Assembly: GCA_030017955.1 (NCBI GenBank) | Contig: JASEGR010000001.1 | Coordinates: 13,761-77,760 of the forward strand | Reading direction: 5' to 3' | DNA length: 64,000 nucleotides | Origin: Candidatus Eiseniibacteriota bacterium | Lineage (GTDB): Bacteria > Eisenbacteria > RBG-16-71-46 > JASEGR01 | Shown: one piece after another, positions 33,470-64,000 of the stretch | Position numbering within the stretch: the first letter of the stretch is position 1 | How the letters are laid out: the number at the start of each line of letters is the position of its first letter | Program-made: the position numbers and the translations under genes | The notes under the pieces: generated by a model | Database searches by the model: none | Seen by the model: only the letters and a program-made list of their open reading frames with translations | What the model was told of the DNA's origin: nothing

Positions 33470-34981
33470 CTATTCGTCCTTGAGCGTTTTCCAGTCTATC
33501 GAATAGAGGGTGTAGAAAACAGGAGTTGGCCTCGTTATTCCAAGTCCGGAAATTGAGCCTGTCATAACGGGCCGGAGGGACGCGCGCAGTCTTTCATCAT
33601 TCATCAGGCGTTCCTTTATCTGTGATCTGTCAACAAGATAGTCGGTTCTCTCGTATCTTCCGAAGCTCAGGTCCGACGCAACTTTTTCGACATCGAACTC
33701 TCTCTCTCTCAGAAGGTCCATCAGATGAGGTGAAACCAATGCTCCCAAATCAAGCACTCTTCTGTCGGAATAGTAGCCAATTGCGCCAACGTCAGTCACG
33801 GCAACGGTGGCAAGAGGAGGCGAATTCGATTTGAGCCACTTCCCAATCGGGATCAGGGATTCATTCATCCCTTTGGAGAAGTTCTTTGTATGGGGATAGG
33901 CCTCGAATCTCAGGATATAAAGGTTCACGGAGATTGCGAAAACCGCAAGGAGCGTTGCCCACAAGGCGGCTTTGCCGGCTTTTCCCCGAAACGAGTCATA
34001 GATGGATTCAAGTGAGAGAAATCCCAGAAGGGTCACCGCCGGCAGAACCGGGGCAAGATATCTGGAGAGCACTTCGACCCCCCGCAGAATGTAAAACGAA
34101 GGTAGAAGCGCAAGCCACAGTATGAGGATGAATCTCTCGTTGAGAAGCCGGGGCAACTTCTTCAGTCCTCCGGACGAGACGACCATGATGATGAACAAGA
34201 CGATTGCCAGGATCTCCGGCCCCTGAGTCGCAAGGATTATCTTGCCTGATCTCAGCGCGGCACCAAGTACCTCCGCACCGCTATGTGCGAATCTTCCTGC
34301 TTTGACAAGGGCCGTTGTCGGGATCACAGTGCCGAATGTTCTTTCCGCATAGATCAGCCAGGGCGAGAGAACAACAACATTCAAGACCAACGAAAACACA
34401 AAGCTCCTGAGCCTTCTTCCCTTCCAAGTGAGCCTGCCGGCCAGCATGAGAACAGCGAGGAGAGCCCCTTCCGGCCGGGAAAGAGCAGAGAGTGCGGAGA
34501 AGATAGGAGAGACTCCGAAACTTGTTCCTCTCAGCTTTTCCCTCTCGTGCAAGAAAATGGAAAGAAGGACAGTAAACACGACAAGCGAGGTTTCCATTCC
34601 CGAGAGGGACCACCTCACGACCCACGCGTCGAACGTGAAAGCGAATACTGCGCCGATGACGAATTCTTTTCTCTTCAATGACAGCGATGCAAGGCGGAAG
34701 AAGACAAAAATCGAGCCAAGGGAGAAGATGAAACCGAGAATCTTGCTCACCGCGGGAAGGTCCTGGGTCGCGCTGCCAAACAAGGCAACCAGAAAGACCC
34801 AGAGGGGGCTGGTGGCGCCAAGAACGGCCTCGCCCGTGTTGAAGCACAATCCGTAGCCGTTCTTCAGATTCTTCGCATACTGAAGGTGTATGAACGTGTC
34901 GTCTGTGATATAGCCGAGGAACGGAATCTCCACCAGAACGAAAAGGAGCAAGATTGACAGCCACAGCGTTCTATTCTTCAT
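33470..34981 (-). CDS. GT-C-fold membrane glycosyltransferase-like protein (ArnT/PMT-like)
   Basis: 503 aa with about 11 TM helices, an N-terminal loop DDTFIHLQYA, and a C-terminal soluble domain. Confidence 0.45.
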   Translation of the reverse strand: MKNRTLWLSILLLFVLVEIPFLGYITDDTFIHLQYAKNLKNGYGLCFNTGEAVLGATSPLWVFLVALFGSATQDLPAVSKILGFIFSLGSIFVFFRLASLSLKRKEFVIGAVFAFTFDAWVVRWSLSGMETSLVVFTVLLSIFLHEREKLRGTSFGVSPIFSALSALSRPEGALLAVLMLAGRLTWKGRRLRSFVFSLVLNVVVLSPWLIYAERTFGTVIPTTALVKAGRFAHSGAEVLGAALRSGKIILATQGPEILAIVLFIIMVVSSGGLKKLPRLLNERFILILWLALLPSFYILRGVEVLSRYLAPVLPAVTLLGFLSLESIYDSFRGKAGKAALWATLLAVFAISVNLYILRFEAYPHTKNFSKGMNESLIPIGKWLKSNSPPLATVAVTDVGAIGYYSDRRVLDLGALVSPHLMDLLREREFDVEKVASDLSFGRYERTDYLVDRSQIKERLMNDERLRASLRPVMTGSISGLGITRPTPVFYTLYSIDWKTLKDE

Positions 34982-35214
34982 TGTCGCTTACCTCTGTTGA
35001 GCCGCCGCTCTTCGAGATGTCCTTTCCCTCCTGCCGAGAATGTCGATCCTTCTCGGACTCGCTCACTCGAATTTGTGAACTCGGCCTACGGCCTCAGACA
35101 GCACAAATTCGCCCCTTCGGGTCACTCCCTCGTCCAAGAAGGGACTCCAGAGATTCTCGGAAAGTCGGTTCAAGGACATCTTTCCAACGTCGCGACCGGA
35201 CCAGAGTCTGGCTG

Positions 35215-36147
35215 CTATCGTTTCCACTTCAGGCCCCCTGCGTAGCAGTAGAACACCAGGAAGTCTATTAGCTTGAACGTGACCGGGCTTGCAGGCGTGC
35301 GTTCGGCAATGAAGCGCCCAGTCCGGAAGAAGGGCTTTCTCAGGAAGACTGAGAGCAGCAGCTTCCTCGCAATGTCGCCCCAACTATCCTCTCCTACTGC
35401 CGGGCACTCAAGAAGATTCAGTCTCAGCACCTTCCTGAGCTCGGGATGTTTGTCAATGAGGATTCTCAGGGACGATTTTCCGCACAGCACTTTTTTCTCA
35501 AGGAACTCATCAAGTGAGTGCCTGTGGATGTGGAAGGACTTGGCATTCTCCGCATAGACAAACTCTCCTCCCACCTTTCCCATCCGGTGCCCCAGGTCGA
35601 CGTCCTCAAAGCCATAGGTGACAAACTCCGGGTCAAAGAGTCCGACCGAAATGAGGAATTCCCTCTTCACAGACGAGTTGTTTGTCAGGAAATACCGTGG
35701 CGGGATGTTCTTCTTGTCCTTCACCTTCTTGACACCTCTGGTATCCAGGTATCTCGAAACCGAAGAGCCATTTGCCTCCGGCGCGGTTGACACATTTCCT
35801 ATTACGACCCTTTTCCGCGCGTCGCCCTGGGCAGTGACGTGAGCCTGAATGAAATCGGGTCCGACGATCATGTCATCGTCAAGAAATACGACTATCTCTC
35901 CAGTTGCACGGAGAATCCCGGTATTCCTCGATGGTGCCCTTCCTCTTGTCTCGGCATGTCTCTCAAATACCAGCGGAACCGGATGCGGACTCGCAAGAAT
36001 TTCGGAAGTGCCGTCCCGTGAACCGTCATCAACGACAACGATCTCAAACCGGGAGCCATCGAACCTCTGAGAGAAGAGTGCACCGAGTGTCCTGGAAAGA
36101 AGGTGCTTCTTATTGCACGTTGGAATGACGACGCTCACCTTTTTCAA
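35215..36147 (-). CDS. Glycosyltransferase family 2
   Basis: 310 aa. VSVVIPTCNKKHLL...EIVVVDDGSRDGT. Confidence 0.85.
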   Translation of the reverse strand: MKKVSVVIPTCNKKHLLSRTLGALFSQRFDGSRFEIVVVDDGSRDGTSEILASPHPVPLVFERHAETRGRAPSRNTGILRATGEIVVFLDDDMIVGPDFIQAHVTAQGDARKRVVIGNVSTAPEANGSSVSRYLDTRGVKKVKDKKNIPPRYFLTNNSSVKREFLISVGLFDPEFVTYGFEDVDLGHRMGKVGGEFVYAENAKSFHIHRHSLDEFLEKKVLCGKSSLRILIDKHPELRKVLRLNLLECPAVGEDSWGDIARKLLLSVFLRKPFFRTGRFIAERTPASPVTFKLIDFLVFYCYAGGLKWKR

Positions 36148-36153
36148 AGAGAT

Positions 36154-37242
36154 TCACCTTCCCGCTGCAAATCGTTTGTAGATCTGGTCCATCTTCTCCA
36201 TGTTCTTCCTGTGATCTGCACGGCTGGACACAATCTCACGGGATACTTTGCCAAACTCTTTTCTCTTATCCGGATTCTTGAGGAGATAGAGAAGCGCGCC
36301 GACCAACTCCTCCCTGCTCCCGGGTTCCACGACCATCCCGTTTTTCCCGTTTTCTATCCACTCAAGACTTGATTTCAGGCTGCTCACAACGATTGCGGCA
36401 CCACAGGCCATCGCCTCAAGAAGCGAGACTGCAGTTGCATCCACCGAAGGGACAGTGACGAAGACATCCGAGGCCCTGACGAGGCCTGGAAGTTTCTCAT
36501 GAGCCACCCTTCCCAGAAAAATCGTGGAAGAGGAAATACCAAGTTTTCTCGCTTTGTCAACAAATCGTGAATCATCGCCTTCATAGCCGGTGAAAATATA
36601 CTTTGCATTCGGAAAGCTCTTCAAGATATCCGGGATGGAATCAACGATGACATCAATGTTGTAGTAGTCTTTCGTGAAGCTCCTCGTACTGAGAATGACC
36701 GGCTCATCCTCTTTGATCCCGAGTTCCCGTCGCGTATCTGTCGCAACAGTCGGATCGAACCTGCTCAGGTCAACACCCCACTGGATAACTGTCGCGTTAT
36801 CTCGTTTCGCACCCATGCGGATGGCTTCCTCAACTATGTCTGCCGAGTCGCCAGTCACGAAATCTGCCTTCCCGAGAGCATATCTGGCCAGAAACCCTTT
36901 CAGAGCAGACTCCCTCGGAGTCAGGTAAACGTCATCGCCCCAGACCGTCAGAATGAACGGATGGAAGTTCGAAAACGCCCCCCAGTATCCGTAGCCGGTA
37001 AGGAAATGAGTATGCAATATGTCGGGGTTAAGCTTCGAGAGAATCTTCTTGATTCTTATGAGGCCGAAAGCGTATTTGATGGGTTTCGGGAGTGAGGAAA
37101 AACCTATCTGATGGACAGGAATTCCGTCCATCTTGCAGGGTTGTGAAGTTATCAGATGAACTTCATACCCTTTGTCCCGGAAAAAACAAAGCCATCGTTC
37201 GGTGTGTATATGATTCCCAATTGAGAGGTAAGCTATTTTCAC
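36154..37242 (-). CDS. Glycosyltransferase family 4 (GT-B)
   Basis: 362 aa. C-terminal EGFGLSLLEAMACGAAIVVS-type motif. Confidence 0.8.
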   Translation of the reverse strand: MKIAYLSIGNHIHTERWLCFFRDKGYEVHLITSQPCKMDGIPVHQIGFSSLPKPIKYAFGLIRIKKILSKLNPDILHTHFLTGYGYWGAFSNFHPFILTVWGDDVYLTPRESALKGFLARYALGKADFVTGDSADIVEEAIRMGAKRDNATVIQWGVDLSRFDPTVATDTRRELGIKEDEPVILSTRSFTKDYYNIDVIVDSIPDILKSFPNAKYIFTGYEGDDSRFVDKARKLGISSSTIFLGRVAHEKLPGLVRASDVFVTVPSVDATAVSLLEAMACGAAIVVSSLKSSLEWIENGKNGMVVEPGSREELVGALLYLLKNPDKRKEFGKVSREIVSSRADHRKNMEKMDQIYKRFAAGR

Positions 37243-37266
37243 GCTGTCTCCGCTCTGCCCCTTCCC

Positions 37267-38796
37267 TTATCTTCTCAGAACTCTCTTCGGCCAGTCGAGC
37301 AAAAACCTGATTGTTCCAACCAGTTTCCTGTTCGTCAGAAGCTCCTCAATCCTTCCTCTTTCCGCCTCGTCGAATATCCCGCCGAAGGCAACTCCCAGAT
37401 TGAAGATTATGAGAACCGGAAGCGTCACAGCAAACAAAACGAGAATGTTTGAAGGATGAAAGATTTCCGCAAGAACGGCTGAGCAAAGGAAAGCCGGCGC
37501 TGCAGACAGAACCAGCCGTCCAGGGCAAATATCGGCAAAACTGAACTCCAGGTAGACTCTCGCAAAACGGATATTGAGAAACAGGATACAGATGGATGCG
37601 AAAGCCTGCGAAATCATCATGCCCCACAATCCCAGTCTTCCGATCAGGAGAACTCCCGAGAAAAGGTATATCACGTACCAGGCAAGATCCGATCCTACGG
37701 AAAGGCCGATCCTGCCGGTGGCCCTCAGGGTGGTAGTCACCGAGGAATAGAGACAGGCAAGAGGCACGAGGAATGCCATGAACAGTAGAAGGGGCTCACT
37801 TCCCTGAAACTCTTTGCTGGTCACAAGGAGAACAAGAGCCCTGTTGCCCAGGACGACAAAGCAGAGGACCAGAAATCCCAGGAGAAACTCAATCTTCATC
37901 AGAAGCGTGAGGTCGGCCCTTATCTCACGGTTTCCCTTCTCCCATTTCCTTGTGATCTCTGGTGAGACCGCAAGGAGCGGAAGGAACAGAAGCTTCTTGA
38001 AGAAATACATTATCCTCGATGCCACGTGAAGAAGTGACACTGCCTGAAAGCTCATGAAGCCGCCGACCACCAGCCGGTCCGAGTTCTCCAAGCCGAGTCC
38101 GATGAAAGTCATGAGGCACGCACCTTTCCAGAAGCTGGAAACCTCTGACGCGGCGCCCAACATTGTTAGCTTTCTCTCGCCTTTCCGCCGGAAGAACAGG
38201 AGCCAGAGAGTTGCAAGTGAAACTATGACTACAATCGCCCCTATGGTGATGAAGACTTTGAAGAGAGCCATGACATCGAGCCGATTTCTGATCACAAAGA
38301 TCCACAGGGTGACAAGTCCTTGAAAAAGTATTTCGAAGACAAAAGGAAAGGTCATTCTCGATAGACCGTTGAATGCACCGTAGATGATGGCCCTCAAGAC
38401 TCCGAAAGCCACGTACGTTGAGGCGAGGAGTATTATCTTCAGACCGAGCGGGGACTCGTGGAAGAGCGAAGATAATCTTCCTCCGAAGGCAATCAATGGA
38501 ATGATCAGAACGACTGCCATGAAACTGGAGAGAATCAGGGAGAATCTGACAAGGTCTCTGGATTTCTCTCTCTCGCCTCTCGCCTCAAACAGAGGAATGA
38601 ATCTGAGTAGAACGAAAGGCAGCCCCAGCTCCATCAGGGCGCCGAAAATTGCGCCCGCCGCGACGCTGGAGGCATAGATGCCGAAACCTATCGGTCCGAG
38701 CCAGACGGCAATTATTTTCGCTTGAATGAGTGTGAAAAAGAGGGTTGAAAAGTGGGATGCAAAAAGGGCGAGAGTGTTTCCCGCAACTCTTTTCAT
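37267..38796 (-). CDS. Polysaccharide flippase (Wzx-like, MOP superfamily)
   Basis: 509 aa with about 12-14 TM helices; typical polysaccharide biosynthesis protein architecture. Confidence 0.65.
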   Translation of the reverse strand: MKRVAGNTLALFASHFSTLFFTLIQAKIIAVWLGPIGFGIYASSVAAGAIFGALMELGLPFVLLRFIPLFEARGEREKSRDLVRFSLILSSFMAVVLIIPLIAFGGRLSSLFHESPLGLKIILLASTYVAFGVLRAIIYGAFNGLSRMTFPFVFEILFQGLVTLWIFVIRNRLDVMALFKVFITIGAIVVIVSLATLWLLFFRRKGERKLTMLGAASEVSSFWKGACLMTFIGLGLENSDRLVVGGFMSFQAVSLLHVASRIMYFFKKLLFLPLLAVSPEITRKWEKGNREIRADLTLLMKIEFLLGFLVLCFVVLGNRALVLLVTSKEFQGSEPLLLFMAFLVPLACLYSSVTTTLRATGRIGLSVGSDLAWYVIYLFSGVLLIGRLGLWGMMISQAFASICILFLNIRFARVYLEFSFADICPGRLVLSAAPAFLCSAVLAEIFHPSNILVLFAVTLPVLIIFNLGVAFGGIFDEAERGRIEELLTNRKLVGTIRFLLDWPKRVLRR

Positions 38797-40214
38797 CTCT
38801 TGCCCAGCGGAGGAACCAGCTCCTTGAGCTTGTCCAGAACTCTCTGATCATCAAGGGTGGCGCAGAGTCTCTCTATCTCCGTTATCTCCTTGTCCAGGTC
38901 AAACGGAAGCTCTCCTTTCTTCGTCACAACCAGTATCTTCTGATGCTCGGTTCTCCGGATAGTCTCCGTCTTTTCCCAAAGTGCTTCAGTCAATTTTTCT
39001 CCCGGTCTCAGCCCGGAAAAAGTTATCTGGATCTCGACCTCGGGAACGAAGCCTGAGAAGGTGATGAGTTCCCTTGCAAGGTCGAGAATCCTGACCGGTT
39101 CACCCATATCGAGCACGAACACTTCGCCGCCTGTCCCGATCGCTCCGGCCTGAAGAACCAGCAGAACCGCTTCTTTCACGGTCATGAAGTATCTCGTTGC
39201 ACTTGCATCCGAGACGGTCACAGGCCCACCTTGGGATATTTGTTTCTTGAAGACCGGGACAACACTGCCGCGCGTCCCAAGCACATTTCCGAATCTTACG
39301 GCCATGAGTTTGGTGGAGTGAGTACCCTTAGCCCGTTCTCCAAGAAAGAACTCTGCCAGCTTCTTGGTTGCGCCCATGACACATGCGGGAGAGACCGCCT
39401 TGTCGGTTGAGAGCATCACAAACCTCTCGGTCCCGGTTCCGATGCAGCTGTCTATCAGGAACTTCGTGCCGAGAAGATTGTTCTTCACCGCCTCAACAGG
39501 ATGAAGCTCCATCAGGTGCACATGTTTGTGTGCGGCAGCATGAAATACAACATCCGGTTTGTGGCGTGAGACCGTCTTTTCGACGACCCGCCTTTCCTTC
39601 AGATCGGCAATCACCGGCAGAAGGCGGGTTTTCCCGGAGGCCAAGCGGACATCGGCCTCAGCTTCAAAGATGCTGTTTTCTCCTCGTCCGAAGAGAACGA
39701 CTTCCTCCGGCTCGAAAGAAAGGACGCGCTTCAGTATTTCTGACCCTATCGAACCTCCGGCGCCCGTGATAAGAATCTTCTTGCCCAGAAGGTAGTTCCT
39801 GAGACTCGATTGATCCACTTCTACAGTCTCTCTGCCGAGGAGGTCATCGCTTTCGACGGTTCTTATCTGATTGATGGTGAAGTCGCCGCGGATGATCTCC
39901 CTGATTCCCGGGACGATCTTGAATCTGACCTTCGCTTTCTCGCAGTACCTGGCGAGCGTCCTTATGTCCTTCCCGGTCGCCGACGGGATGGCAATGAGAA
40001 TCTCATCGATTGAGAGTTTGCCGGCAAGCCCTGCGATCTCTTCCCTGCCGCCCAGCACGGGAATCCCCTTCACCTTCTTTCCCTGTTTCTGTGGATCGTC
40101 GTCCACGAAGGCGATAGGGACCAGCAGAAGCTCCGGGTGCGAGAACATCTCGGAGACTGCCATTTCTCCAGCCTCGCCTGCTCCGATTATCAGAACCCTT
40201 GTTTCCTTATTCAC
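38793..40214 (-). CDS. CapD/PglF/WbpM-family nucleotide-sugar 4,6-dehydratase (soluble form)
   Basis: 473 aa. N-terminal CoA-binding-like VLIIGAGEAG and SDR domain KILITGAGGSIGSEI ... STDKAVSPACVMGATKKLAE. Confidence 0.8.
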   Translation of the reverse strand: MNKETRVLIIGAGEAGEMAVSEMFSHPELLLVPIAFVDDDPQKQGKKVKGIPVLGGREEIAGLAGKLSIDEILIAIPSATGKDIRTLARYCEKAKVRFKIVPGIREIIRGDFTINQIRTVESDDLLGRETVEVDQSSLRNYLLGKKILITGAGGSIGSEILKRVLSFEPEEVVLFGRGENSIFEAEADVRLASGKTRLLPVIADLKERRVVEKTVSRHKPDVVFHAAAHKHVHLMELHPVEAVKNNLLGTKFLIDSCIGTGTERFVMLSTDKAVSPACVMGATKKLAEFFLGERAKGTHSTKLMAVRFGNVLGTRGSVVPVFKKQISQGGPVTVSDASATRYFMTVKEAVLLVLQAGAIGTGGEVFVLDMGEPVRILDLARELITFSGFVPEVEIQITFSGLRPGEKLTEALWEKTETIRRTEHQKILVVTKKGELPFDLDKEITEIERLCATLDDQRVLDKLKELVPPLGKR

Positions 40215-48780: not shown

Positions 48781-48880
48781 CCCTCACCAGCCTCTCCCCA
48801 TTGGGGAGAGGGTCAGGGTGAGGGGAACCTCAAGCCCTCTATCACCCTCTCCCCTCTGGGGAGAGGGTTAGGGTGAGGGG
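48781..48880. repeat. Two copies of the palindromic element CCCTCTCCCC-N3/4-GGGGAGAGGG-T(C/T)AGGGTGAGGGG
   Basis: The two copies are ccctcaccagcctctccccattggggagagggtcagggtgagggg and caccctctcccctctggggagagggttagggtgagggg. Same family as 7410-7450 and 13519-13598. Confidence 0.8.
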
Positions 48881-55568: not shown

Positions 55569-56681
55569 CTATCCTAGGAACTCACCGATAATCTTGACTA
55601 TTCTCCCTGTTGCGCTCCCAACTCCGAAAAGCTCGGGTCTTCTCGGAGTCCCGGGGAGACCCCTCCTTACAGTATCGACAATCTCTTCCTCATCAACATC
55701 GCAGAGCGTGTTCCATCCACCCTCGAGCGTCTCAACCCATTCAGTCCTGTTTCTCAGTGTAACTACCGGCACTTCAAAAAAGTAAGCCTCTTTCTGTACA
55801 CCACCTGAATCTGTCAGGACCACAGCAGCATTTTTCTCAAGGACCAGCATGTCCAGATAAGACACCGGATCAATCATCCTGAGCTGCGGGCTTGCCGAAA
55901 AGGAAATCCCGCTGATAACCTTTCTTGTCCTCGGGTGAACCGGAAAAACGACCGGTCGCCCGAGTTTTCCGGCCATATTGAGAATCTTGAGCACCCTCTC
56001 CGGATCATCCGTATTTTCCGCCCTGTGCACTGTCAGCAAGAAGTATCCTTTTTTTGAGAGACTTAGTGAAGAGAGAATTTCACTTCTCTTTTCGGCCTCA
56101 ACGATCCTCTCCCCGAGAGTTTCAAGCATTACGTCTCCGGTGAAGTGGACTCCACTCCAGATTCCTTCCTTGTGCAGGTTTTGAACCGCCGTTTCAGTGG
56201 GACAGAACAAGAGCGCCGATACATGGTCCGTCAGGCAGCGGTTTATCTCTTCAGGCATCTTCTTCTCGTAACTTCTGAGGCCTGCCTCAACGTGGGCCAC
56301 GTCTATTCCCATCTTGGATGAAGCGAGTGCGCCCGCAAGAGTCGAGTTGGTGTCTCCGTAGACAATCGAGAGCGCCGGAGATTCGTCAATGAGCACCTGC
56401 TCAATTCTTTTCAGCATTTCGCCGGTCTGGAAACCATGTGAACCGGACCCGACCTCGAGATTGTACGCAGGTTCCGGTATCTCCAGCTCTTCGAAGAAGA
56501 CTCTCGACATCGCGTCATCATAGTGCTGACCGGTGTGAACGAGCACTTCCTCAAAATGTTCCCGAAGGAGTCTCCAGAGCTGAGCGCACTTTATGAATTG
56601 AGGCCTCGCGCCTACAATCGAGACTACTTTCTTTTTCCCTTTCAGCTGTACACCCTCCCCTGCGGACTTCCCGAAACTCAT
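55569..56681 (-). CDS. wecB: UDP-N-acetylglucosamine 2-epimerase (non-hydrolysing)
   Basis: 370 aa. IVGARPQFIKCAQL ... VHTGQHYD. Confidence 0.85.
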   Translation of the reverse strand: MSFGKSAGEGVQLKGKKKVVSIVGARPQFIKCAQLWRLLREHFEEVLVHTGQHYDDAMSRVFFEELEIPEPAYNLEVGSGSHGFQTGEMLKRIEQVLIDESPALSIVYGDTNSTLAGALASSKMGIDVAHVEAGLRSYEKKMPEEINRCLTDHVSALLFCPTETAVQNLHKEGIWSGVHFTGDVMLETLGERIVEAEKRSEILSSLSLSKKGYFLLTVHRAENTDDPERVLKILNMAGKLGRPVVFPVHPRTRKVISGISFSASPQLRMIDPVSYLDMLVLEKNAAVVLTDSGGVQKEAYFFEVPVVTLRNRTEWVETLEGGWNTLCDVDEEEIVDTVRRGLPGTPRRPELFGVGSATGRIVKIIGEFLG

Positions 56682-56717: not shown

Positions 56718-57530
56718 TCAGAGTTTGAGATTCTCCACTTTACAAAACGGGCAAATCCAGATTTTGTCTTTTGCTTCTTCCGTGATGTGCCTGCCGCATG
56801 ACCTGCACACATGAAAGACAAGACGTAGCCCGCTCCCGCCTGTCTTCTGGAAAAACATTAGATAGTTGCTTCTGCTCACAAGGTCTATCCCTGCCCGTTT
56901 CAGGATCGAAAGAGTGCTGATGAAACCCTTCTGAAACCGCACGATCCTGGGATCATTCATCCAACTGAAACCCGACGGCGCCTCGGCAAATGAAATAAGC
57001 CTGAGCCCTCTCCTATAGAACTCTCTCACGACTCCTTGAAAGTCAAGCTTCTGCACATGCTCTAGTCTCTTCCTGAATTTGAACATTCCATATTTCGCGA
57101 AGAATCCTGCGAAGCGGTAGAACCTGTCGTCAAAAGACGCGGAGTTTGGAAACGAAAGATAGAGCCTCCCGCCCGGTTTGATTGATGAGACGAGATTGTC
57201 GATCGTTCCGGAGAAATCACCGATGTGCTCAAGCACATACTGGCAAACGACAAAATCGAAGACAGAATCCTTGAGCGGGAAAGAAACCAGGTCCGATAGA
57301 ACAAAGCTGACATTTGAGGACGCTCCCGGATTCCAGTTTTTCCTTCGTATGTCCACGCCGACTATCCTGAGATGCGGGAAGAGCCCATAGTTGAAACTCC
57401 CGCCGCCGCATCCGGCGTCAAGCACAAGACTTCCTGCCGGAAGGTCATTCAGCACTTCGTCAACGAACAAATGTTCATCCATGTGCAGGTTTCCGAGACG
57501 TCCAAGTGAACTCTCCCTTGCGGGATACAC
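56718..57530 (-). CDS. Class I SAM-dependent methyltransferase with C-terminal zinc ribbon
   Basis: 270 aa. VLDAGCGGGSF motif and a C-terminal CRSCG...CPFC. Confidence 0.7.
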   Translation of the reverse strand: MYPARESSLGRLGNLHMDEHLFVDEVLNDLPAGSLVLDAGCGGGSFNYGLFPHLRIVGVDIRRKNWNPGASSNVSFVLSDLVSFPLKDSVFDFVVCQYVLEHIGDFSGTIDNLVSSIKPGGRLYLSFPNSASFDDRFYRFAGFFAKYGMFKFRKRLEHVQKLDFQGVVREFYRRGLRLISFAEAPSGFSWMNDPRIVRFQKGFISTLSILKRAGIDLVSRSNYLMFFQKTGGSGLRLVFHVCRSCGRHITEEAKDKIWICPFCKVENLKL

Positions 57531-57550
57531 CCGGAGAATGCAGGCAAGGG

Positions 57551-58507
57551 TCAGAACCTATTTCGGCTGCTCCACCAGTGGCAGGTTTCATGATCTTCTT
57601 TCAAGCCATGGCCGGGTTTCAGGGCAGCACGGATTCCAGAAAAGACCCCTTTCCATAGAGCATGCACATTTCTGGCATTTCCCGGAGTAAGATTTTTCAA
57701 TGAGAAGGCAACAAGTCCCAGAAGCCCAAAGACAGGCGCTGTTAGGAAGTGGTACCACTTCGCGTATTTTCTGAAAAGGAAAATCCCGCTCTTTCCCCTA
57801 TTGTATGCTTTGAATGGGGTTAGACCGCCGCCCGAGCTCGATGAGACTTTGTGCCATGCGATTGCTTCCGGAACGAAGAGGAGCGTGTATCCGGCTTCTC
57901 TTGCCCTGAGTGAAAAATCAGCATCCTCTCCATAAATAGAATACCTGTCGTCGAGCATTCCGACCTTCCCGATGACTTCCCTCCTGATCATAAGCGCGCA
58001 TGCCGTCAGGTAATCAACGAAAGCCTTCCGGGAGTACTTTTGGGAGTCCGCCTGCCTTATCCCGATATGTGAAGTCATCCCTGCCCAAAGCCTAACTCTC
58101 CCGCCTGCCGACCATATCGTTCTCGTTCCGGCGTAGAATATCTTCGGGCCGGAGAGCCCGGTGTCATGTTCGCGCTCCAGTGAATCGACAAGATTTGGCA
58201 CACAATCCGTATGAACCGTCGCGTCGCTGTTGATGAGGAAAAAATAATCGCCGCCCATCTCGCAGCCGCAGGAAAGCCCGATATTGACCCCCTTGCTGAA
58301 AAGGAGGTTTTCATTGTTCTTGATTACGATGGTCTCCGGGTAGGATTCTCTGGCCGCATCCGGCGTGCCGTCCGTCGAGCCATTGTCGACAAGTATAACC
58401 TGGAGTCTCGGATAGTTCGACTGCCGGAGGGATTCGAGACATTCGAGCGTGTCTCTCCTCCCGTTCCAGGTCACAACAATCGCAATCACACTCGGTTTTG
58501 GCACCAT
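57551..58507 (-). CDS. Glycosyltransferase family 2
   Basis: 318 aa. IAIVVTWNGRRDTL...VILVDNGSTDGT. Confidence 0.8.
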   Translation of the reverse strand: MVPKPSVIAIVVTWNGRRDTLECLESLRQSNYPRLQVILVDNGSTDGTPDAARESYPETIVIKNNENLLFSKGVNIGLSCGCEMGGDYFFLINSDATVHTDCVPNLVDSLEREHDTGLSGPKIFYAGTRTIWSAGGRVRLWAGMTSHIGIRQADSQKYSRKAFVDYLTACALMIRREVIGKVGMLDDRYSIYGEDADFSLRAREAGYTLLFVPEAIAWHKVSSSSGGGLTPFKAYNRGKSGIFLFRKYAKWYHFLTAPVFGLLGLVAFSLKNLTPGNARNVHALWKGVFSGIRAALKPGHGLKEDHETCHWWSSRNRF

Positions 58508-58845
58508 TAGGTCCTATTCGCTCGATATCTTCGGCCCAGCTAGCGGCCCACGGGGACCGGTTGCTCGGCACGGAAGAGCGTGGTGGCGATGAGCCGTGAG
58601 CTGGCTTACGCGGGAGGGATGGGGAATCCATCTTGGCAAGCAAGGTGGGGATACCCAGCCCTTTAGAGGCTGGGAGGGGTAAGGATTCCCCGCCTGGCGA
58701 GCCATAGATGGGTCATCCCGGAGCGGAGCCAGCAAAGGCTCATTCGCCATCACGATTCCACGCGCCATCTATGCGGCCACCTCCGACACTGCCACGCAGC
58801 CGACCCCGTGCCGAGGAGCCGACTCAGTTCGGCTCCCCCGAATTC

Positions 58846-59550
58846 TCAGTTGACGAACCTGTATTTGAGAAGGGTGTAGAGTGCGATCACGCCGTCGATC
58901 CACCTTACTTTTTTCCCTTCGTTCGTTGTCCTGGGATGGTAACCGATGGGCACTTCGAATATCCTGTGCCCTCTCTTTCTGAGTTTTGCAGTCACCTCGG
59001 GACAGAATTCGAATCTCCTGCACTTGAGTTCTATGCTTTTTATGACATCAGTCCTGAAAACCTTATAAGCAGTCGCTTCATCCGTTATATTGCACCTGTA
59101 GAGCAGGTTTGCAGCGGTCGTGAGCACGATATTTGCAATCTTGCTCCTAAATGGAAGTCCCTCCACCTTCCGCAAGAATCTTGAACCATAGACAACTTCT
59201 TCTTTTCCCGAAATGATGGGTTCAAGAAGCTTTTCGTACTCCTCCGGGTCAAGCTCAAGATCTGCGTCCTGGATTATCACGATGTCTCCGGTGACATAAG
59301 AGAGTCCGACTCTGATAGCCGCCCCCTTGCCGAAATTGACTCTTGAGGCATGGACAAGAAGAACGCCGCCAAGCTTTTCCTTTTCCCTGGCCAGCACTTC
59401 CTGGGTCCTGTCAGTTGAGCCGTCATCAATGACTATCATCTCCTTTTCAAGCGGGACCCTGGAGACTCTCTCGACCACTTCCCCAATGGTGCTCTCTTCG
59501 TTGTAAACCGGTATGATTACCGAGAGTTTCAGACTCCTTCTCCTTCCCGT
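58846..59550 (-). CDS. Dpm1-like GT2 glycosyltransferase; conserved N-terminus lies upstream of the ORF-track GTG start
   Basis: The ORF track begins at GTG 59478 ([23 protein letters not shown]). The in-frame upstream codons up to the TAA at 59551-59553 encode [24 protein letters not shown], the canonical GT2 N-terminus. That stretch contains no ATG, GTG or TTG. Confidence 0.6.
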
Positions 59551-61050
59551 TTAGCCGAGGCCCCTCCGGGCAAAATAGAAAGCCGATATCGTGAGAAGAG
59601 AAATGACGACGAACAGAGCAAGATTGAGACTTCCGGGAACACCAAATCTCGTCGAGTAGTAGAACCAGTAGTCTATTCCTCCCATCAGACTTTCTTTCTC
59701 TTCATCACCAAGCGGGATTCTTCCGCCCTCCTGGCTCAAAGCGCTCAGAGACAGTTCCTTCTCCGTCCCATTCAGGATTGAACCGGCGTTCTTCCTGAGC
59801 ATCTCCCAATGCCCGGCTACTGGGGAAAATCTTGGGTTGAAGTGCGAATCGGCAAGAAACCTTGGGTCCGTGAACTCCCTGGTGTACGGATATTCACCGA
59901 TTTCCCTGAGGTACGAGCCATAGTAGATTGTCGCGCCGCCTATCTGGACAAAGATGCCGATGACAAAAAGCGTTTTGTAGAGGACTCTGGTTAAAGAAGG
60001 CGATTTTCCAGGAAGACCTTCTTCGAGAACCATGAGAAGCGGAAGCAACATCGGCCCGAGGAGAGGAAGAAGGTATCTTGGTCCCCAGCTGCCGTCCCCT
60101 GCCCACGCCCTGAACTTCGCGTAGAGAAGAAGATTGAGCACAAAGGTCACAGTAAGAAGAATCGCGAGTGATCTCTCTCTTCTCAGGAAAAGTCCGAGTC
60201 CACAAACAGAAAGAATGAGTATTGGCGCATAGAGAAAAACGCTTTTCCCGGAGCTCAAAAGGAGACCGTACAATCCGACAAGGATAGGGGTCGAGAAGCC
60301 GGCGGGCGTCCCCTCATTCATGTAGCCGCTCTGGAACGGCGAGCCGAACCTTGCATAGTTGTAGAGAAGCATTGCTCCAAATCCGGCTGCGACCGGAATG
60401 AAAAAGCTTGCCGATTTCTTTCGCAACTCAGGCCCAAGCATAAATATTGACGCAGGCACCAGGAGAACGACCGTAGCGGATTTCACCAGGATGAGAAAGA
60501 AACCCGAAATGCCGGCAAGAAAAACAAAGAGCGATCTCCTCTCATTTCTTCCGCGGTAGAGAAAGTAGAAGAGGCTCAGGAAGAAGAAACTCAGAATTGA
60601 TTCTGCCGTGTAGTACTTTGCGTAGGGCCATGCAAAAGTCGAAATTCCGTATCCACAGGCCACGATGAATGACGTTCGCCCATTGAATCCCAGAGCCCTG
60701 CCAAAGAGAAACAGAATCAAGCACGCCCCGGCCGTGAAGAAAGCCGCAAGAAGCGAGACGAAGAATTTTTGCACAAACTCAGCGGCTCCCGGAGGTGCAA
60801 AAGCAGAGGCCAGCTTACCAACCAGGAAGAGAGGAATGGAAAGGATTGCCTGCCCTATGCCGGCCTTCGTATAGAGTCTTCCGTCCTTTCCGGGAAAAGC
60901 ATTCCCGTACGGAACGGATACGGTTCCGTGCTCGACAATGCTCTTCGTAAGAAGAAACATCGTGTTCCCGTCGCTGCTTACGATGTGACCGCCGGATGTG
61001 AGTACGTAGAAGAAGAGAAAGAAGAGGAATATGAAGACCAGGTTTTTCAA
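59551..61050 (-). CDS. Polytopic membrane protein, putative GT-C-fold glycosyltransferase
   Basis: 499 aa with about 12 TM helices; the N-terminal loop contains SSDGNTMFLLTKSIVEHG. Confidence 0.4.
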   Translation of the reverse strand: MKNLVFIFLFFLFFYVLTSGGHIVSSDGNTMFLLTKSIVEHGTVSVPYGNAFPGKDGRLYTKAGIGQAILSIPLFLVGKLASAFAPPGAAEFVQKFFVSLLAAFFTAGACLILFLFGRALGFNGRTSFIVACGYGISTFAWPYAKYYTAESILSFFFLSLFYFLYRGRNERRSLFVFLAGISGFFLILVKSATVVLLVPASIFMLGPELRKKSASFFIPVAAGFGAMLLYNYARFGSPFQSGYMNEGTPAGFSTPILVGLYGLLLSSGKSVFLYAPILILSVCGLGLFLRRERSLAILLTVTFVLNLLLYAKFRAWAGDGSWGPRYLLPLLGPMLLPLLMVLEEGLPGKSPSLTRVLYKTLFVIGIFVQIGGATIYYGSYLREIGEYPYTREFTDPRFLADSHFNPRFSPVAGHWEMLRKNAGSILNGTEKELSLSALSQEGGRIPLGDEEKESLMGGIDYWFYYSTRFGVPGSLNLALFVVISLLTISAFYFARRGLG

Positions 61051-62156
61051 TTCTCTATTGCCTCCACTACCTTCGCCCAGGAGAACTTTTCCCTGTGTGC
61101 ACGAATATTCTCTCTCATTGAAGGGCCAAGATCATCCTTGAAGAACCTGATGACAGCCTCTGCAATTGCGTTACTGTCGCCTGGCGGAACCAAGAGGCCT
61201 GTTTCTCCGTCACTGATCGCCTCCGGAACTCCCCCGACCTTCGTGCTTACGGCAGGCACCTCAAACGCATAGGCAACCTGGACCACGCCGCTCTGGGTCC
61301 CCGACGTATAGGGAAGAACAACCACATCCGCGGCGCTGAAATACCGCCCAACCTTGTCGTCAGGGATGTAGCCTGACATTATCTTCACTTTCTCCCCAAT
61401 TCCAAGCTTCTTCACAATCGACGTGTACTTCTCGACGGGCTCATAGAAGTCGCCGACGACAAGCAGCGTGGCGTCAATCTCTCTGAGTATGAGCGGCATG
61501 GCCTCAATGAGAAACTCAAGCCCCTTGTACGGCCTCACGTAGCCAAAGAAGAGGATCACGTTTCCGGAAACCTGAACTTCACGCCTCGCAGCCACTCTGT
61601 CAACCGCCTCGGCTGCGAAGAACGAATAGTCAGGATGGAAGACTTCTCTTACTTCTGCGCGTGGTTTCAACTTGAGCAGTTCATTCTTTACGAAACCGGA
61701 CATCACAAGGAAACGGTCCACCTGCGAAAATGCAAATCTTGTGAGAATTTTATCCCCGGGCCTTCTTTCGTGAGGCATGGCGTTATCGCAGATGAAGATG
61801 ACTCTCGAGCCCGTGAATCGTCTGGACAAGAGAGAGATAGTCCCGAAGCAGAGCCCAAAAAACGGAGTCCACCATTTGAAAATAAGGAGGTCCGCCTTTT
61901 CCCGATGGACAATCCTGAAAGCTCTGATCCATGTGAAGGGATTAAGAGAATCTATGATCCGGCAGGAATCCACTTTTATCTTGGGCTTCCCCGGCTCAAG
62001 CTGGCTCGTCCCGGGAAAGAGGAACCGCGGATATTGCCTCCTGAATGAAATGAACACGACGGCGTGATTCTTTGCAAGCTCCCTGTGGAGAACGGCAAGA
62101 TACTGCGCTATGCCGCCCCTCAAAGGAAAAGCCGGACCGATGATGGCTATTTTCAA
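61047..62156 (-). CDS. Glycosyltransferase family 4
   Basis: 369 aa. EVPAVSTKVGGVPEAISDGETGLLVPPGD. Confidence 0.8.
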   Translation of the reverse strand: MKIAIIGPAFPLRGGIAQYLAVLHRELAKNHAVVFISFRRQYPRFLFPGTSQLEPGKPKIKVDSCRIIDSLNPFTWIRAFRIVHREKADLLIFKWWTPFFGLCFGTISLLSRRFTGSRVIFICDNAMPHERRPGDKILTRFAFSQVDRFLVMSGFVKNELLKLKPRAEVREVFHPDYSFFAAEAVDRVAARREVQVSGNVILFFGYVRPYKGLEFLIEAMPLILREIDATLLVVGDFYEPVEKYTSIVKKLGIGEKVKIMSGYIPDDKVGRYFSAADVVVLPYTSGTQSGVVQVAYAFEVPAVSTKVGGVPEAISDGETGLLVPPGDSNAIAEAVIRFFKDDLGPSMRENIRAHREKFSWAKVVEAIEN

Positions 62157-62159
62157 TTG

Positions 62160-63098
62160 TTACTCTCTCACTCCCAGGAGAAAGACTCTGTCACCCCACA
62201 TTCCGGTCAGTCGCGTAAGAGAAGAGTTCAATGTCTCAAGCAAGGTAAACAATACTTTTTCAGGACCGGAGAATTTTCTTGGATTGGCAGGCATCTTCGT
62301 GACGATTGTTCGCCTGACTTTGAATCCGGCTGCTTCAACGAAGAGGGCAAGTGTCCGTGGCGTGAATTCAATCAGGTGGTACGGGGGCGAGAAGAGAGTC
62401 TTCTTTCTCCTGGATATTGAGTAGCCAAGCATCCCCAGTCTTCTCGAGAGCGTATCCAACGACGTGGGGACAGCGACCGCCAATATGCCGCCAGGTCTTA
62501 GAATTCGCCTCACTTCGCGGAGATCGTCGAGCGGGAATTCAACGTGTTCGATGACATCCCCCAGGAAAGCAGCATCAAAGCTTTCATCGGGAAGGCCGGC
62601 GCTCGAAAGAGTTCCTTTGTGGACGGGCAGTCCAAGCTCCTCGCACGCGAATCTGGATGCTTCGGGAGAAGGCTCAACTCCGAAGACTTCCCATCCCTCG
62701 CCCATTGCAGTCTTGAGGAAGTAGCCTCCGGCGCAGCCGATCTCAATTATCTTTCCCTTCTTCCCGAGAGAAGCCTCTATCTTGCCGAGCGTATCAAGGT
62801 TCCCCGCTCTCATGTGAATCTCACTTCCAAAGTACTCTCCGGAATGTCCACATCTGAAGTCGCCGTCAAAATAAGACTTTCCGTACATGATCTCGAGCTC
62901 TGCTTCCTTCGGCTTCCGGGAGAGAAACGCGACGCCGCAGCGTCTGCACTTGACGGCGGGAAACCTCTTAGAAAGATAGAGGTATTCAAAGGGAAGATTC
63001 TTCAGGATTTCGGAGCTGCAAAGGGGACAAAGAGAAGTTCTCTCGGGCAAGGGCTCACCCAACCTCCCATGTATCAAGTCCTCTGAACTCGAATCCAA
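62160..63098 (-). CDS. Class I SAM-dependent methyltransferase with N-terminal zinc ribbon
   Basis: 312 aa. CPLCSS...CRRCG followed by IIEIGCAGGYF. Confidence 0.7.
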   Translation of the reverse strand: MDSSSEDLIHGRLGEPLPERTSLCPLCSSEILKNLPFEYLYLSKRFPAVKCRRCGVAFLSRKPKEAELEIMYGKSYFDGDFRCGHSGEYFGSEIHMRAGNLDTLGKIEASLGKKGKIIEIGCAGGYFLKTAMGEGWEVFGVEPSPEASRFACEELGLPVHKGTLSSAGLPDESFDAAFLGDVIEHVEFPLDDLREVRRILRPGGILAVAVPTSLDTLSRRLGMLGYSISRRKKTLFSPPYHLIEFTPRTLALFVEAAGFKVRRTIVTKMPANPRKFSGPEKVLFTLLETLNSSLTRLTGMWGDRVFLLGVRE

Positions 63099-64000
63099 AC
63101 TCGACTATCTGTCCGCCCAGTTCCTCCAGCCTTTCTGCAACAATGTGCTTCTTGCCGAAGTCACAGAAAAGGAGCAGATATCCGCCTCCACCGGCGCCAA
63201 GGATCTTGCCGCCGATCGCACCGTTCTTTCTTGCCACATCGTAGAGCTCGTCTATGCTTTCGTCAGTAATGGCCTTGTCGAGTTTCTTCTTGTTGCCCCA
63301 AGAGAGATGCAGAAGCTCGCCAAACTCAGAGAGCTTTCCGAGGAGAAGCAAGTCCTTCATGACGATCGCATCCTGTTTTATCGCATCAAGCGCACGGACT
63401 ACTTCCTCTTTCCGTTCGATGTAGGACCTGGTCTGCCTGGCAACAATGTTTGCCGACAGCCGCGTCTTGCCGGTGTAGCAGAGCAATAGACCATACTCTA
63501 GCTCGTTAATGACCGACGGCTTCATCCTGAGCGAATTCACAACGGTCTTGCCGTTTCCAAACTCAATGAAGTTGAATCCTCCGAAAGTTGCCGCGTACTG
63601 ATCCTGTCTCCCTCCGGCAATCCCAAGACCAACTCTCTCAATCTCGTACGCAAGCTCTGCAATCCCGTAATCGGTAAGAGGAGTTTTCAACCAGTTCACA
63701 AATGTCCCGATGAGAGAAACGACCATTGTTGAAGAAGAGCCGAGTCCCGAGCCGGGTGGAGCATCAGTATGGATGAAGAGATCAAATCCGGATTCCGCAC
63801 TCATCCTTTCTGCGACTGCTCTCACCAGACCGAGTTCTGAATCGACAGCCATGCTTTTGCCTTTTGAATACTTTGCGACAACGTCATAATCGAGAGACGT
63901 GATGGTGAGCTTCTCATCCTTTCTTTCAACAAGAGACGAGAAGGCATACTTGTTGATCGTCGCACTGATAACCGCCCCTCCCCTTTCCTCCGGATAAGGG
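63055..64000 (-). CDS. GHMP-family sugar kinase (HddA-like heptose-7-phosphate kinase); 5'-truncated at window end
   Basis: The ORF track gives 63055..63852, but the frame stays open to 64000. The encoded upstream sequence is ...GGAVISATINKYAFSSLVERKDEKLTI.... The GHMP motif PPGSGLGSSS is present. Confidence 0.7.
   Translation of the reverse strand, partial: PYPEERGGAVISATINKYAFSSLVERKDEKLTITSLDYDVVAKYSKGKSMAVDSELGLVRAVAERMSAESGFDLFIHTDAPPGSGLGSSSTMVVSLIGTFVNWLKTPLTDYGIAELAYEIERVGLGIAGGRQDQYAATFGGFNFIEFGNGKTVVNSLRMKPSVINELEYGLLLCYTGKTRLSANIVARQTRSYIERKEEVVRALDAIKQDAIVMKDLLLLGKLSEFGELLHLSWGNKKKLDKAITDESIDELYDVARKNGAIGGKILGAGGGGYLLLFCDFGKKHIVAERLEELGGQIVEFGFEFRGLDTWEVG

Follow-up and report, generated by a model that had tools for sequence, protein, structure and literature searches.

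How does a bacterium complete a surface glycan, and where does the product go, when the genes for its assembly include a Wzx-type flippase and three GT-C-like membrane glycosyltransferases, and when a further glycosyltransferase is fused in frame to a beta-propeller resembling PorZ, a glycan-binding protein? The question is raised by positions 33470-64000 of the DNA analysed here, a 64-kb stretch of a 78-kb contig of Candidatus Eisenbacteria (Eiseniibacteriota) that we call the window. These positions make up a composite cell-envelope glycan locus a short distance upstream of the dcw cluster. For the most part this is a rich but ordinary set of surface-glycan genes. The new part is a cassette in which a glycosyltransferase carrying a degenerate, apparently dead phosphoglycosyl transferase (PGT) half is paired with a PorZ-like protein. 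Here the two are fused into one protein of 1387 residues, and nothing in the locus is more informative than the domain make-up of this protein.

An earlier note on this DNA, made from the sequence alone, had described the 1387-aa protein as a GT-C or YfhO-like fusion with a type IX secretion system (T9SS) tail. The fusion and the tail both stand. The GT-C or YfhO-like part does not, its place being taken by a GT2 domain, a four-transmembrane bundle, a DUF (domain of unknown function) and a dead WbaP-type PGT, followed by a PorZ-like double propeller (Table 1). Residues ~265-673 follow a plan of four-transmembrane bundle, PF13727-like DUF, re-entrant helix and C-terminal half of the catalytic fold. 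Together with the GT2 domain, this is the same plan as in large (Lg-) PGTs of the WbaP type and in glycosyltransferase-fused bifunctional (Bi-) PGTs. The re-entrant helix, KRIFDFIVGTIGLILFSPLFLF (residues 529-550), aligns to that of WbaP and keeps the Ser-Pro kink. At residues 585-591, SLRLPFY stands in place of SLDELPQ. In the HMMER alignment to WbaP, residues 327-386 of the latter are passed over, and some 45-60 residues have been deleted or replaced there. The Asp-Glu dyad is a conserved catalytic feature of the PGT superfamily, for which the domain plan of the large members has been described (PMC10942596); since the dyad is lost here, we treat the domain as a predicted non-catalytic remnant, and with the KFRTM and dyad stretch deleted or replaced the protein cannot be filed as a PGT. 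An AlphaFold2 model of the GT2/dead-PGT half had low confidence, with a predicted local distance difference test (pLDDT) of 64.8 and a predicted template modelling score of 0.37. It was used for its top Foldseek match only, which was WbaP (8T53), and for no residue-level claim. Intact GT2-PGT relatives exist (P0003, P0005, P0006, P0007 and P0009). The difference from Lg- and Bi-PGTs is that the loss of KFRTM and dyad is clade-wide and correlated with the gain of a propeller partner. Literature searches returned no description of PGT pseudo-enzymes.

The second half of the protein, residues 696-1387, was modelled with AlphaFold2 from a 23-sequence alignment at a mean pLDDT of 85.9. Its best full-length PDB match in Foldseek was PorZ (5M11; E 2.1e-26, TM-score 0.64), whereas the sensors of hybrid two-component systems (HTCS) scored about 0.40. 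PorZ is the anionic lipopolysaccharide (A-LPS)-binding subunit of the T9SS attachment complex of Porphyromonas gingivalis, and it has the same two seven-bladed propellers and C-terminal beta-sandwich domain (CTD). The NCBIfam PorZ profile NF052228 covers residues 955-1386, tail included, and the tail matches the end of this profile with E values of 1.2e-14 to 1.2e-15. Taken alone, the tail is borderline for the T9SS type-A sorting domain, and the T9SS-type tail of the earlier note draws its support from the PorZ structural match and from the family. TIGR04183 is matched by 37 of 43 orthologue tails (E<=0.01, best 2.6e-11) and the end of the PorZ profile by 42 of the 43, while 14 also match the PorU sortase tail; in the orthologue of an Eisenbacteria relative, L001, the tail scores 27.2 bits against TIGR04183, above the cutoff of 23. 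In locus L093, a homologue that bears PF21544 (PorZ_N) and shares 27% identity with the window propeller lies by itself, surrounded by housekeeping genes. In the window, by contrast, the gene lies inside a glycan-synthesis cassette and is coupled or fused to a membrane glycosyltransferase, so that, from this single comparison locus, embedding in a glycan cassette looks lineage-specific.

The dead-PGT and propeller parts are joined in frame through what was the signal peptide of the propeller, here and at one other known locus. The junction, RRRIVPLSIIPLLFLFSQKSEA, has a short hydrophobic core of 13 residues and a SEA motif at residue 695, which is compatible with a predicted release by signal peptidase after this residue. 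No canonical start codon lies ahead of the hydrophobic segment. An internal start for the propeller half was considered and rejected: the only canonical in-frame start nearby lies inside the hydrophobic segment, and its use would remove the export signal. The fusion also sets the topology, with the C-terminus of the dead PGT in the cytoplasm and the propeller in the periplasm. The 1387-aa open reading frame (ORF) might instead be an assembly or sequencing artefact that merges two normally separate genes, as the sequence comes from a contig of a metagenome-assembled genome, a single exact copy of the protein, annotated in NCBI as a glycosyltransferase, is known and at least 50 relatives have two genes. 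However, an in-frame join of the usual NTGA overlap requires both an indel and the loss of a stop codon, and the junction retains a coherent signal-like segment. A second fused ORF with an analogous junction, FLRAT-ALVLLFVAAFTAVPSPRAAKAA-TKLF, occurs on a contig (L062) from an unrelated soil metagenome. Its alignment runs unbroken over the junction (residues 1-1006) at 31% identity, which makes an artefact very unlikely.

Are the lost active site and the propeller linked beyond this one protein? We compared 85 related loci, collected from exact-protein look-ups and one metagenome scan and analysed by script. KFRSM and DELPQ are missing, by alignment and read-out of hidden Markov model (HMM) columns, from the window protein and from 78 related loci, and are kept in seven (L002-L004, L014, L016, L018 and L023). 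A propeller-family gene lies immediately downstream in 50 of the 52 dead-dyad loci with at least 1.5 kb of downstream sequence, and slightly further off in the other two; none of the seven intact-dyad loci has this neighbour. Fisher's test, with kinship ignored, gives p ~1e-7, a value that overstates the evidence because the loci are not independent. No intact-dyad locus has an adjacent YfhO gene (0/7). The 237-aa GT2 stands immediately upstream of the dead-PGT gene in 60/62 loci, preceded by YfhO in 31/37, and mraZ is reached within the flank in 16 of 33 dead-dyad loci. At 28 of 60 loci the start of the propeller gene overlaps the upstream stop as NTGA, and the separate propeller proteins (~50 loci) begin with a short, ordinary signal peptide. 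The conserved cassette, found in dozens of metagenomic loci and often abutting mraZ, thus consists of a GT4, a YfhO-type GT-C, a GT2 resembling dolichol-phosphate-mannose synthase (DPMS), the dead-PGT GT2 and the PorZ-like propeller. Identity between orthologues amounts to 60-64% (GT2), 33-41% (YfhO), 33-38% (dead-PGT protein), 27-30% (propeller) and, at some loci, 53% (PglF-like dehydratase). In the synteny comparison across relatives, which the earlier note had proposed, the core of the cassette is therefore kept and the 5' half is variable: the flanks of the relatives yielded neither the radical S-adenosylmethionine (SAM) gene nor the GT-C at 59551, the HddA-like kinase, the nucleotidyltransferase or either methyltransferase. 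Conserved machinery with variable sugar genes is typical of surface-glycan loci.

What these loci contain is a clade of GT2-PGT proteins that have lost the PGT active site and kept the membrane scaffold. Dyad loss goes together with the gain of a PorZ-like partner, which is translationally coupled and, in two lineages, fused. Gene fusion is good evidence that a glycan-binding protein of the PorZ type is linked, physically or functionally, to the assembly of glycan at the inner membrane. The cassette occurs widely in environmental metagenomes, frequently beside the dcw cluster, which suggests that it belongs to the core envelope of a phylum about which little is known.

Two of the intact-dyad loci show a different gene content: L002 (8001-14741) and L003 (3208-9948) have a UDP-glucose/GDP-mannose dehydrogenase and two short-chain dehydrogenase/reductase (SDR) epimerases downstream. 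Neither has an adjacent co-directional YfhO, DPMS-like GT2 or propeller gene; in L002, a YfhO gene lies ~6 kb downstream on the opposite strand.

The same propeller could have another task. It may act as a periplasmic glycan sensor or scaffold of an inner-membrane complex, exerting feedback or chain-length control on the fused or coupled GT2 much as the fold does in HTCS sensors of Bacteroides, with the C-terminal beta-sandwich as a structural element and not as a secretion signal. Several observations fit: the strongest PDB matches by sequence are HTCS sensors, two lineages have the propeller fused in frame to an inner-membrane protein and many loci show translational coupling, the window revealed no T9SS genes, and its tail falls just under the TIGR04183 cutoff. 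In about 50 loci, however, the propeller is a separate protein with a short signal peptide of the cleavable type and no membrane anchor, and a cytoplasmic signalling output domain is lacking. The type-A sorting domain recurs in most of the orthologue tails, a third of which resemble the PorU sortase tail as well, and the three-domain arrangement is far closer to PorZ than to HTCS by TM-score. We therefore regard a sensor as rather unlikely.

We then turn to the membrane proteins that could act on the glycan once it has reached the periplasm. All three large membrane proteins are GT-C-like by sequence, in agreement with the GT-C/YfhO-like assignment of the earlier note. The 503-aa protein at 33470 aligns to the solved AftB arabinofuranosyltransferase (9dlf), its ITDDTFI pairing with IADDGLI, DD motif included. 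Homology of this protein to the GT87 enzyme at the equivalent place in L001 was examined and rejected, as the two have no similarity. The protein at 45204 is marginal for YfhO in Pfam, but its full-length syntenic orthologues, 33-41% identical, score clearly as YfhO. The protein at 59551 matches the LA_3751/LA_3752 putative glycosyltransferase family of Leptospira, with a weak PMT_2 match in addition. Sequence searches returned no PDB match for the latter two. Two of the three lie directly upstream of a soluble DPMS-type GT2, giving the pairs 59551+58846 and 45204+44490. The GT2 at 44490 has P. furiosus dolichol-P-mannose synthase (5MLZ, 2.4e-37) as its best PDB match, followed by ArnC and GtrB, and both GT2s are probable polyprenyl-phosphate-sugar synthases.

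A polyprenyl-phosphate-sugar synthase beside a GT-C is the established design of multi-component transmembrane glycosylation, as in Gtr, ArnC/ArnT, CsbB/YfhO and Ppm/Pmt (PMC8035078, PMC7389260). In this respect the route is not the "non-canonical" one of the earlier note, as this pairing is a known mechanism of periplasmic glycosylation, also represented by mycobacterial Aft/Emb. A more fitting term is periplasmic elaboration driven by GT-C enzymes; systems of this kind are known, and what is unusual here is the host and the density. Like CsbB/YfhO, GtlA/GtlB for lipoteichoic acid, GtrB/GtrV, ArnC/ArnT, Ppm1/Pmt and Aft/Emb, the locus has two GT2 and GT-C pairs plus an AftB-like GT-C, and its donor-synthase fold matches the DPMS, ArnC and GtrB structures. 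Those systems are found in Firmicute, actinobacterial and enteric hosts, whereas the host here belongs to a candidate phylum and is presumed diderm because of the T9SS-type CTD. Unlike theirs, the DPMS-like GT2 lacks a transmembrane anchor, and the pair forms part of a fixed cassette that also holds the dead-PGT glycosyltransferase and the PorZ-like protein. No small flippase of the GtrA/GtcA/ArnEF type was recognised among the ORFs scanned, of which those of at least 100 aa were covered systematically.

The boundary between the GT-C at 59551-61050 and the DPMS/AglJ-like GT2 that follows it is unusual. The two are in the same frame, with one TAA between them (59478-59553). The essential first beta-strand of the GT2 precedes its first canonical start (GTG at 59478), and a Shine-Dalgarno-like AAGGAG motif is found at 59534-59539. 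The GT2 may use a non-canonical start (CTG or ATC), it may be reached by stop-codon read-through, or a GT-C-GT2 fusion may have split recently.

The placing of a DPMS-type GT2 beside a GT-C is also the Ppm/Pmt arrangement, and the locus could accordingly serve protein O-glycosylation of the Ppm/Pmt or PgfS/PgfM type, with the GT-Cs moving single sugars from polyprenyl-phosphate donors onto secreted or surface proteins, possibly the propeller itself or CTD-bearing cargo, instead of assembling a glycolipid. PgfS and AglJ models are among the profile matches, and no polymerase or ligase was found in the window. Ten further GT2/GT4 domains, a Wzx and dedicated amino-sugar pathways instead favour a lipid-linked oligosaccharide, and in the sole characterised case a PorZ-fold protein binds glycan. 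We regard O-glycosylation as decidedly improbable.

How far, then, does the locus depart from the Wzx/Wzy pathway? It shares with Wzx/Wzy O-antigen and exopolysaccharide (EPS) loci the co-directional nucleotide-sugar genes, the GT2 and GT4 enzymes and a flippase of the MOP family, present at 37267-38796. It differs in that the window shows no recognisable active initiating PGT, Wzy, Wzz or other polysaccharide co-polymerase (PCP), outer-membrane polysaccharide export (OPX) protein or WaaL-type ligase. Pfam and NCBIfam scans of its sizeable ORFs found none of the last four and no ABC exporter; no scanned ORF matched ABC_tran or ABC2_membrane, and with them no Wzm/Wzt-type exporter. The absence of Wzy, Wzz and ABC exporter given in the earlier note is thus borne out within the window, and extends to a wza-type OPX protein. 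An initiating PGT with an intact active site is likewise absent from the window, where KFRTM and the Asp-Glu dyad are missing from the sole PGT-like domain and MraY of the dcw cluster is the only PF00953 protein. No stand-alone monotopic PGT was seen in the flanks of any of the ~85 related loci. The absence of Wzy and of an initiating enzyme holds for the 64-kb window, ~14 kb of the contig lying outside it.

An ordinary Wzx/Wzy locus, in which PGT, Wzy and Wzz are encoded outside the window, the GT-C and DPMS pairs add side branches as in Gtr systems and the propeller is an unrelated neighbour, would account for the flippase and for a 5' half that varies between relatives, as is usual for O-antigen loci. 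The uncovered part of the contig leaves room for the missing genes, and divergent Wzy proteins are hard to recognise and can escape HMMs. But a propeller that follows the dead-PGT gene in nearly all loci, shares a stop overlap with it in almost half and is fused to it twice is no casual neighbour, and all four non-flippase polytopic proteins have been assigned to a GT-C or PGT scaffold. Furthermore, the compact cassettes of L005-L007 go from glycosyltransferase genes into mraZ with no called gene that carries a Wzy-, Wzz- or flippase-type Pfam domain. An ordinary Wzx/Wzy locus hence appears somewhat improbable.

The reading that we favour, with modest confidence, is that the GT-C enzymes finish a lipid-linked glycan in the periplasm and that the PorZ-like protein binds it. 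In the cytoplasm, the GT2 and GT4 enzymes would build a lipid-linked oligosaccharide on a carrier whose priming enzyme is encoded elsewhere, and the dead-PGT scaffold may still hold, for the GT2 domain fused to it, the polyprenyl-linked acceptor. Wzx would flip the product to the periplasmic face. There, the three GT-C enzymes could add further residues from polyprenyl-phosphate-sugars made by the two DPMS-like GT2s, and this addition would replace block polymerisation of the Wzy type. The propeller would be exported beside its membrane partner, the fused form probably being freed by signal peptidase after the SEA motif at residue 695, and the freed propeller would bind the finished glycan. 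By analogy with PorZ, it may use a pathway of the T9SS type to carry or present the glycan on the cell surface; a role in anchoring T9SS cargo is suggested by this analogy. In P. gingivalis, PorZ binds A-LPS and passes it to the PorU sortase, and without PorZ A-LPS builds up in the periplasmic space (PMC8545088). The making of a PorZ-type protein beside, or within, the enzyme that finishes its ligand fits such a shuttle.

Several points weigh against this reading. The match of the propeller to the PorZ equivalog profile lies far below its cutoff, and by sequence its best PDB matches are the glycan-sensing HTCS domains (BT4663, 1.4e-25) and not PorZ. The propeller family aside, there is no other CTD-bearing ORF in the window and ~1 Mb of related loci. 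No porU, porV, sov or gldKLMN was seen in the window, the rest of the genome being outside the search, and literature searches returned nothing on T9SS in Eisenbacteria. For a surface protein secreted by T9SS, being fused in frame to an inner-membrane protein is a difficulty unless the tether is cleaved. The model of the GT2/dead-PGT half is of low confidence, and the window has no initiating enzyme with an intact active site. Part of the source contig lies outside the window analysed, and many of the metagenomic loci are mutually related, so that the counts are not phylogenetically independent.

If the PorZ analogy holds, the cassette offers candidate genes for a T9SS anchor glycan outside Bacteroidota and a testable model of how PorZ acquires its cargo. 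It is tempting to speculate, although we consider it unlikely, that the cassette is a biosynthesis-and-delivery module for a glycolipid that anchors T9SS cargo outside Bacteroidota, with a PorZ-type shuttle, made beside or even within the membrane glycosyltransferase that completes its ligand, which takes up its load at the inner membrane, is freed by signal peptidase, leaves through the T9SS and then presents its glycan to the sortase. If true, this would give a genetic handle on the unexplained route from periplasm to surface of the anchor LPS proposed for P. gingivalis PorZ, and the dead-PGT proteins would be the first described clade of PGT pseudo-enzymes.

A FemAB-family gene stands directly after the propeller gene in L005 (11190-12164), L006 (11109-12083) and L007 (11208-12182) and two genes further on in L001 (16285-17253); the window has none. 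These genes match TIGR03019 (PEP-CTERM-associated FemAB) weakly, at 3.6e-22 to 4.9e-27. The T9SS linking sugar of P. gingivalis is aminoacylated, in a pathway that includes the acyltransferase-like VimA, so that the FemAB gene could be a lead.

Table 1. Genes and protein segments of the glycan locus, in order from the window edge toward the dcw cluster; values are profile or structure matches unless stated otherwise.
Feature	Coordinates	Strand	Evidence
HddA-like GHMP sugar kinase	63055..64000	-	NF049969 1.7e-80, 271 bits (cutoff 600), profile 23-338 of 338; GHMP_kinases_N and _C; 5' end past window edge
SAM methyltransferase, N-terminal CxxC...CxxC zinc ribbon	62160..63098	-	Methyltransf_23, Methyltransf_11; CPLC at residue 24, CRRC at residue 51
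GT4	61047..62156	-	Glyco_trans_1_4 5.9e-31
GT-C-like membrane glycosyltransferase, ~8 or more transmembrane segments	59551..61050	-	LA_3751/LA_3752 family 1.7e-22; weak PMT_2 match
DPMS/AglJ-type GT2, probable polyprenyl-phosphate-sugar synthase	58846..59532	-	PF00535 4.1e-26; AglJ 5.7e-26
GT2	57551..58507	-	PF00535 6e-21
SAM methyltransferase, C-terminal zinc ribbon	56718..57530	-	Methyltransf_23, Methyltransf_11; CRSC at residue 242, CPFC at residue 260
WecB, non-hydrolysing UDP-GlcNAc 2-epimerase	55569..56681	-	TIGR00236 300.8 bits (cutoff 210)
LegB-like NAD-dependent NDP-hexose 4,6-dehydratase	54528..55511	-	TIGR04180 7.3e-129, 429 bits (cutoff 475)
Sugar-1-phosphate nucleotidyltransferase, ManC-/PtmE-/HddC-like	53785..54486	-	PF00483 1.3e-46; ManC-type 166 bits; HddC 96.6 bits; all below cutoffs
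DegT/PseC/LegC-type sugar aminotransferase	52590..53819	-	PF01041 2.5e-128; PseC 313 bits
GT2	51516..52415	-	PF00535 1.8e-24
B12-binding (class B) radical SAM protein	50012..51433	-	PF02310 and PF04055; HpnJ/BchE-like, below cutoffs
GT4	48868..50040	-	Glyco_trans_4_2 3.5e-29
GT4, TuaH-like, first cassette gene	47602..48765	-	TuaH-like 1.3e-20; orthologues 30-33% identical in L005-L007
YfhO-type GT-C, 798 aa, ~13 transmembrane segments	45204..47600	-	PF09586 27.2 bits (cutoff 28.5); orthologues carry PF09586
DPMS-type soluble GT2, 237 aa, probable polyprenyl-phosphate-sugar synthase for the YfhO enzyme	44490..45203	-	5MLZ E 2.4e-37
1387-aa protein, residues 1-260: GT2 (GT-A fold), catalytic motifs intact	43703..44482	-	PF00535, PF13641; D38, N87-P88-D89 and E200-D201-x-D203 invariant in two alignments
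1387-aa protein, residues ~265-525: four-transmembrane bundle and CoA_binding_3-like DUF of large PGTs	42908..43690	-	TIGR03025 1.6e-41, profile 1-288; transmembrane segments
1387-aa protein, residues 526-673: degenerate monotopic PGT	42464..42907	-	Re-entrant helix with Ser-Pro kept; KFRTM and Asp-Glu dyad lost; alignment, HMM columns
1387-aa protein, residues 674-695: fusion junction, signal-peptide-like n/h/c segment	42398..42463	-	No in-frame start before it
1387-aa protein, residues 696-1295: two Reg_prop beta-propellers, PorZ-like	40598..42397	-	Reg_prop 7.1e-20; NF052228 PorZ 2.4e-32, 112 bits (cutoff 260)
1387-aa protein, residues 1296-1387 and stop: C-terminal beta-sandwich like T9SS type-A sorting domain (YVYPNP...GVYVV...AVLR)	40319..40597	-	TIGR04183 20.8-20.9 bits (cutoff 23)
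PglF/CapD-like UDP-HexNAc 4,6-dehydratase	38793..40214	-	PF02719 9.5e-105; CoA_binding_3 at residues 7-102; L001 orthologue 53% identical
Wzx-like MOP-family flippase	37267..38796	-	PF01943 32.3 bits (cutoff 28.2); at least 12 hydrophobic segments
GT4	36154..37242	-	Glycos_transf_1 4e-31; L001 orthologue 54% identical
GT2, EpsD-like	35215..36147	-	PF00535 2.3e-27; EpsD 5.6e-51, below cutoff
AftB-like GT-C, 503 aa, ~9 transmembrane segments, DD motif after the first, last gene of locus	33470..34981	-	9dlf E 1.1e-5; NF041481 1.7e-6

The locus consists of 23 consecutive ORFs on the minus strand, all co-directional and devoted to glycan synthesis, where the earlier note had counted about 25; their common direction was correctly seen. 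Nearly all the gene families that it named are recovered by Pfam and NCBIfam: the four GT4 enzymes (36154, 47602, 48868 and 61047), the Wzx-like flippase, CapD/PglF, WecB, the DegT aminotransferase with its nucleotidyltransferase, the SDR dehydratase, which is LegB-like, the class B radical SAM protein, the two methyltransferases with two CxxC pairs in each and the HddA-like kinase at the edge. Its five GT2 enzymes become six GT2 domains (35215, the N-terminus of the 40319 ORF, 44490, 51516, 57551 and 58846). Nucleotide-sugar and tailoring genes that vary between strains make up the 5' half (~48.9-64 kb), and the 3' half holds the conserved cassette, after which the PglF-like dehydratase, Wzx, a GT4, a GT2 and the AftB-like GT-C follow toward lower coordinates.

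From these genes the composition of the glycan can be predicted in part. The LegB-like dehydratase, the PseC/LegC-like aminotransferase and the nucleotidyltransferase together would make an NDP-4-amino-4,6-dideoxy-N-acetylhexosamine (HexNAc), and WecB is the predicted supplier of UDP-N-acetylmannosamine (UDP-ManNAc). The glycan thus probably contains 4-amino-4,6-dideoxy-HexNAc and ManNAc, and the amino-deoxy sugar and ManNAc residues proposed in the earlier note have their enzymes encoded here. As in the pathways for bacillosamine, legionaminic acid and pseudaminic acid (PglF/E/D, LegB/C and PseB/C), PglF/CapD-like and LegB-like dehydratases occur, and the PseC/LegC-like aminotransferase lies beside a nucleotidyltransferase. 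In contrast to those pathways, a NeuB-type synthase, a hydrolysing NeuC-type epimerase and a CMP-transferase are lacking, which excludes a nonulosonic acid as the product, and all scores are below the equivalog cutoffs. The PglF/CapD-like dehydratase (38793-40214) keeps the CoA_binding_3-type DUF of large PGTs and has no four-transmembrane bundle, and is thus the soluble form of an enzyme that is normally anchored in the membrane. Methylated sugars are suggested by the presence of the two methyltransferases.

Heptose is an unproven candidate residue, to which the HddA-like kinase alone points. This kinase scores less than half of its cutoff, and the nucleotidyltransferase scores higher as a ManC type (166 bits) than as HddC (96.6 bits against a cutoff of 300). 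Profile searches found no SIS-domain GmhA and no HAD-family GmhB in the window. In L001, a GT9 heptosyltransferase is encoded at 2868-3977, together with two proteins of the phosphodiesterase/sulfatase family, just upstream of the Wzx-YfhO cassette; the GT9 agrees loosely with the use of heptose in this lineage.

The genes of the locus are tightly packed, with intergenic distances of -44 to +338 nt, and most neighbours are a few bases apart or overlap. The largest non-coding gaps are 338, 233 and 174 nt. The first of these (58508-58845) has no convincing ORF and no Rfam match and breaks the otherwise tight packing; it may hold an internal promoter that divides the locus into at least two transcription units. 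An Rfam scan of the whole window returned no RNA family at gathering score. GC content is 0.50-0.55 over the whole window and the skew is uniform too, so that there is no sign of a foreign island and horizontal transfer of the locus as an island was ruled out.

On its lower-coordinate side, the locus is followed by genes for an NMT1-like periplasmic binding protein and a hybrid kinase with HAMP, HisKA, HATPase and receiver domains (30452-33396), and then by a complete dcw cluster in the order mraZ, STAS-domain ORF, rsmH, ftsI with PASTA, murE, murF, mraY, murD, ftsW, murG, murC, murB, ftsQ, ftsA and ftsZ. Because the cassette abuts mraZ directly in L005-L007, the binding-protein and kinase genes look like a lineage insertion. 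The small STAS-domain ORF between mraZ and rsmH (29392-29757) is an unusual insert in an otherwise canonical dcw order, and is kept in L005 (15197-15604), L006 (15171-15638) and L007 (15245-15682). The FtsI-type penicillin-binding protein (25818-27899) carries PASTA domains (PF03793, two stretches), as it does in L005 and L006, a feature that we had not expected in an organism with T9SS-type sorting domains.

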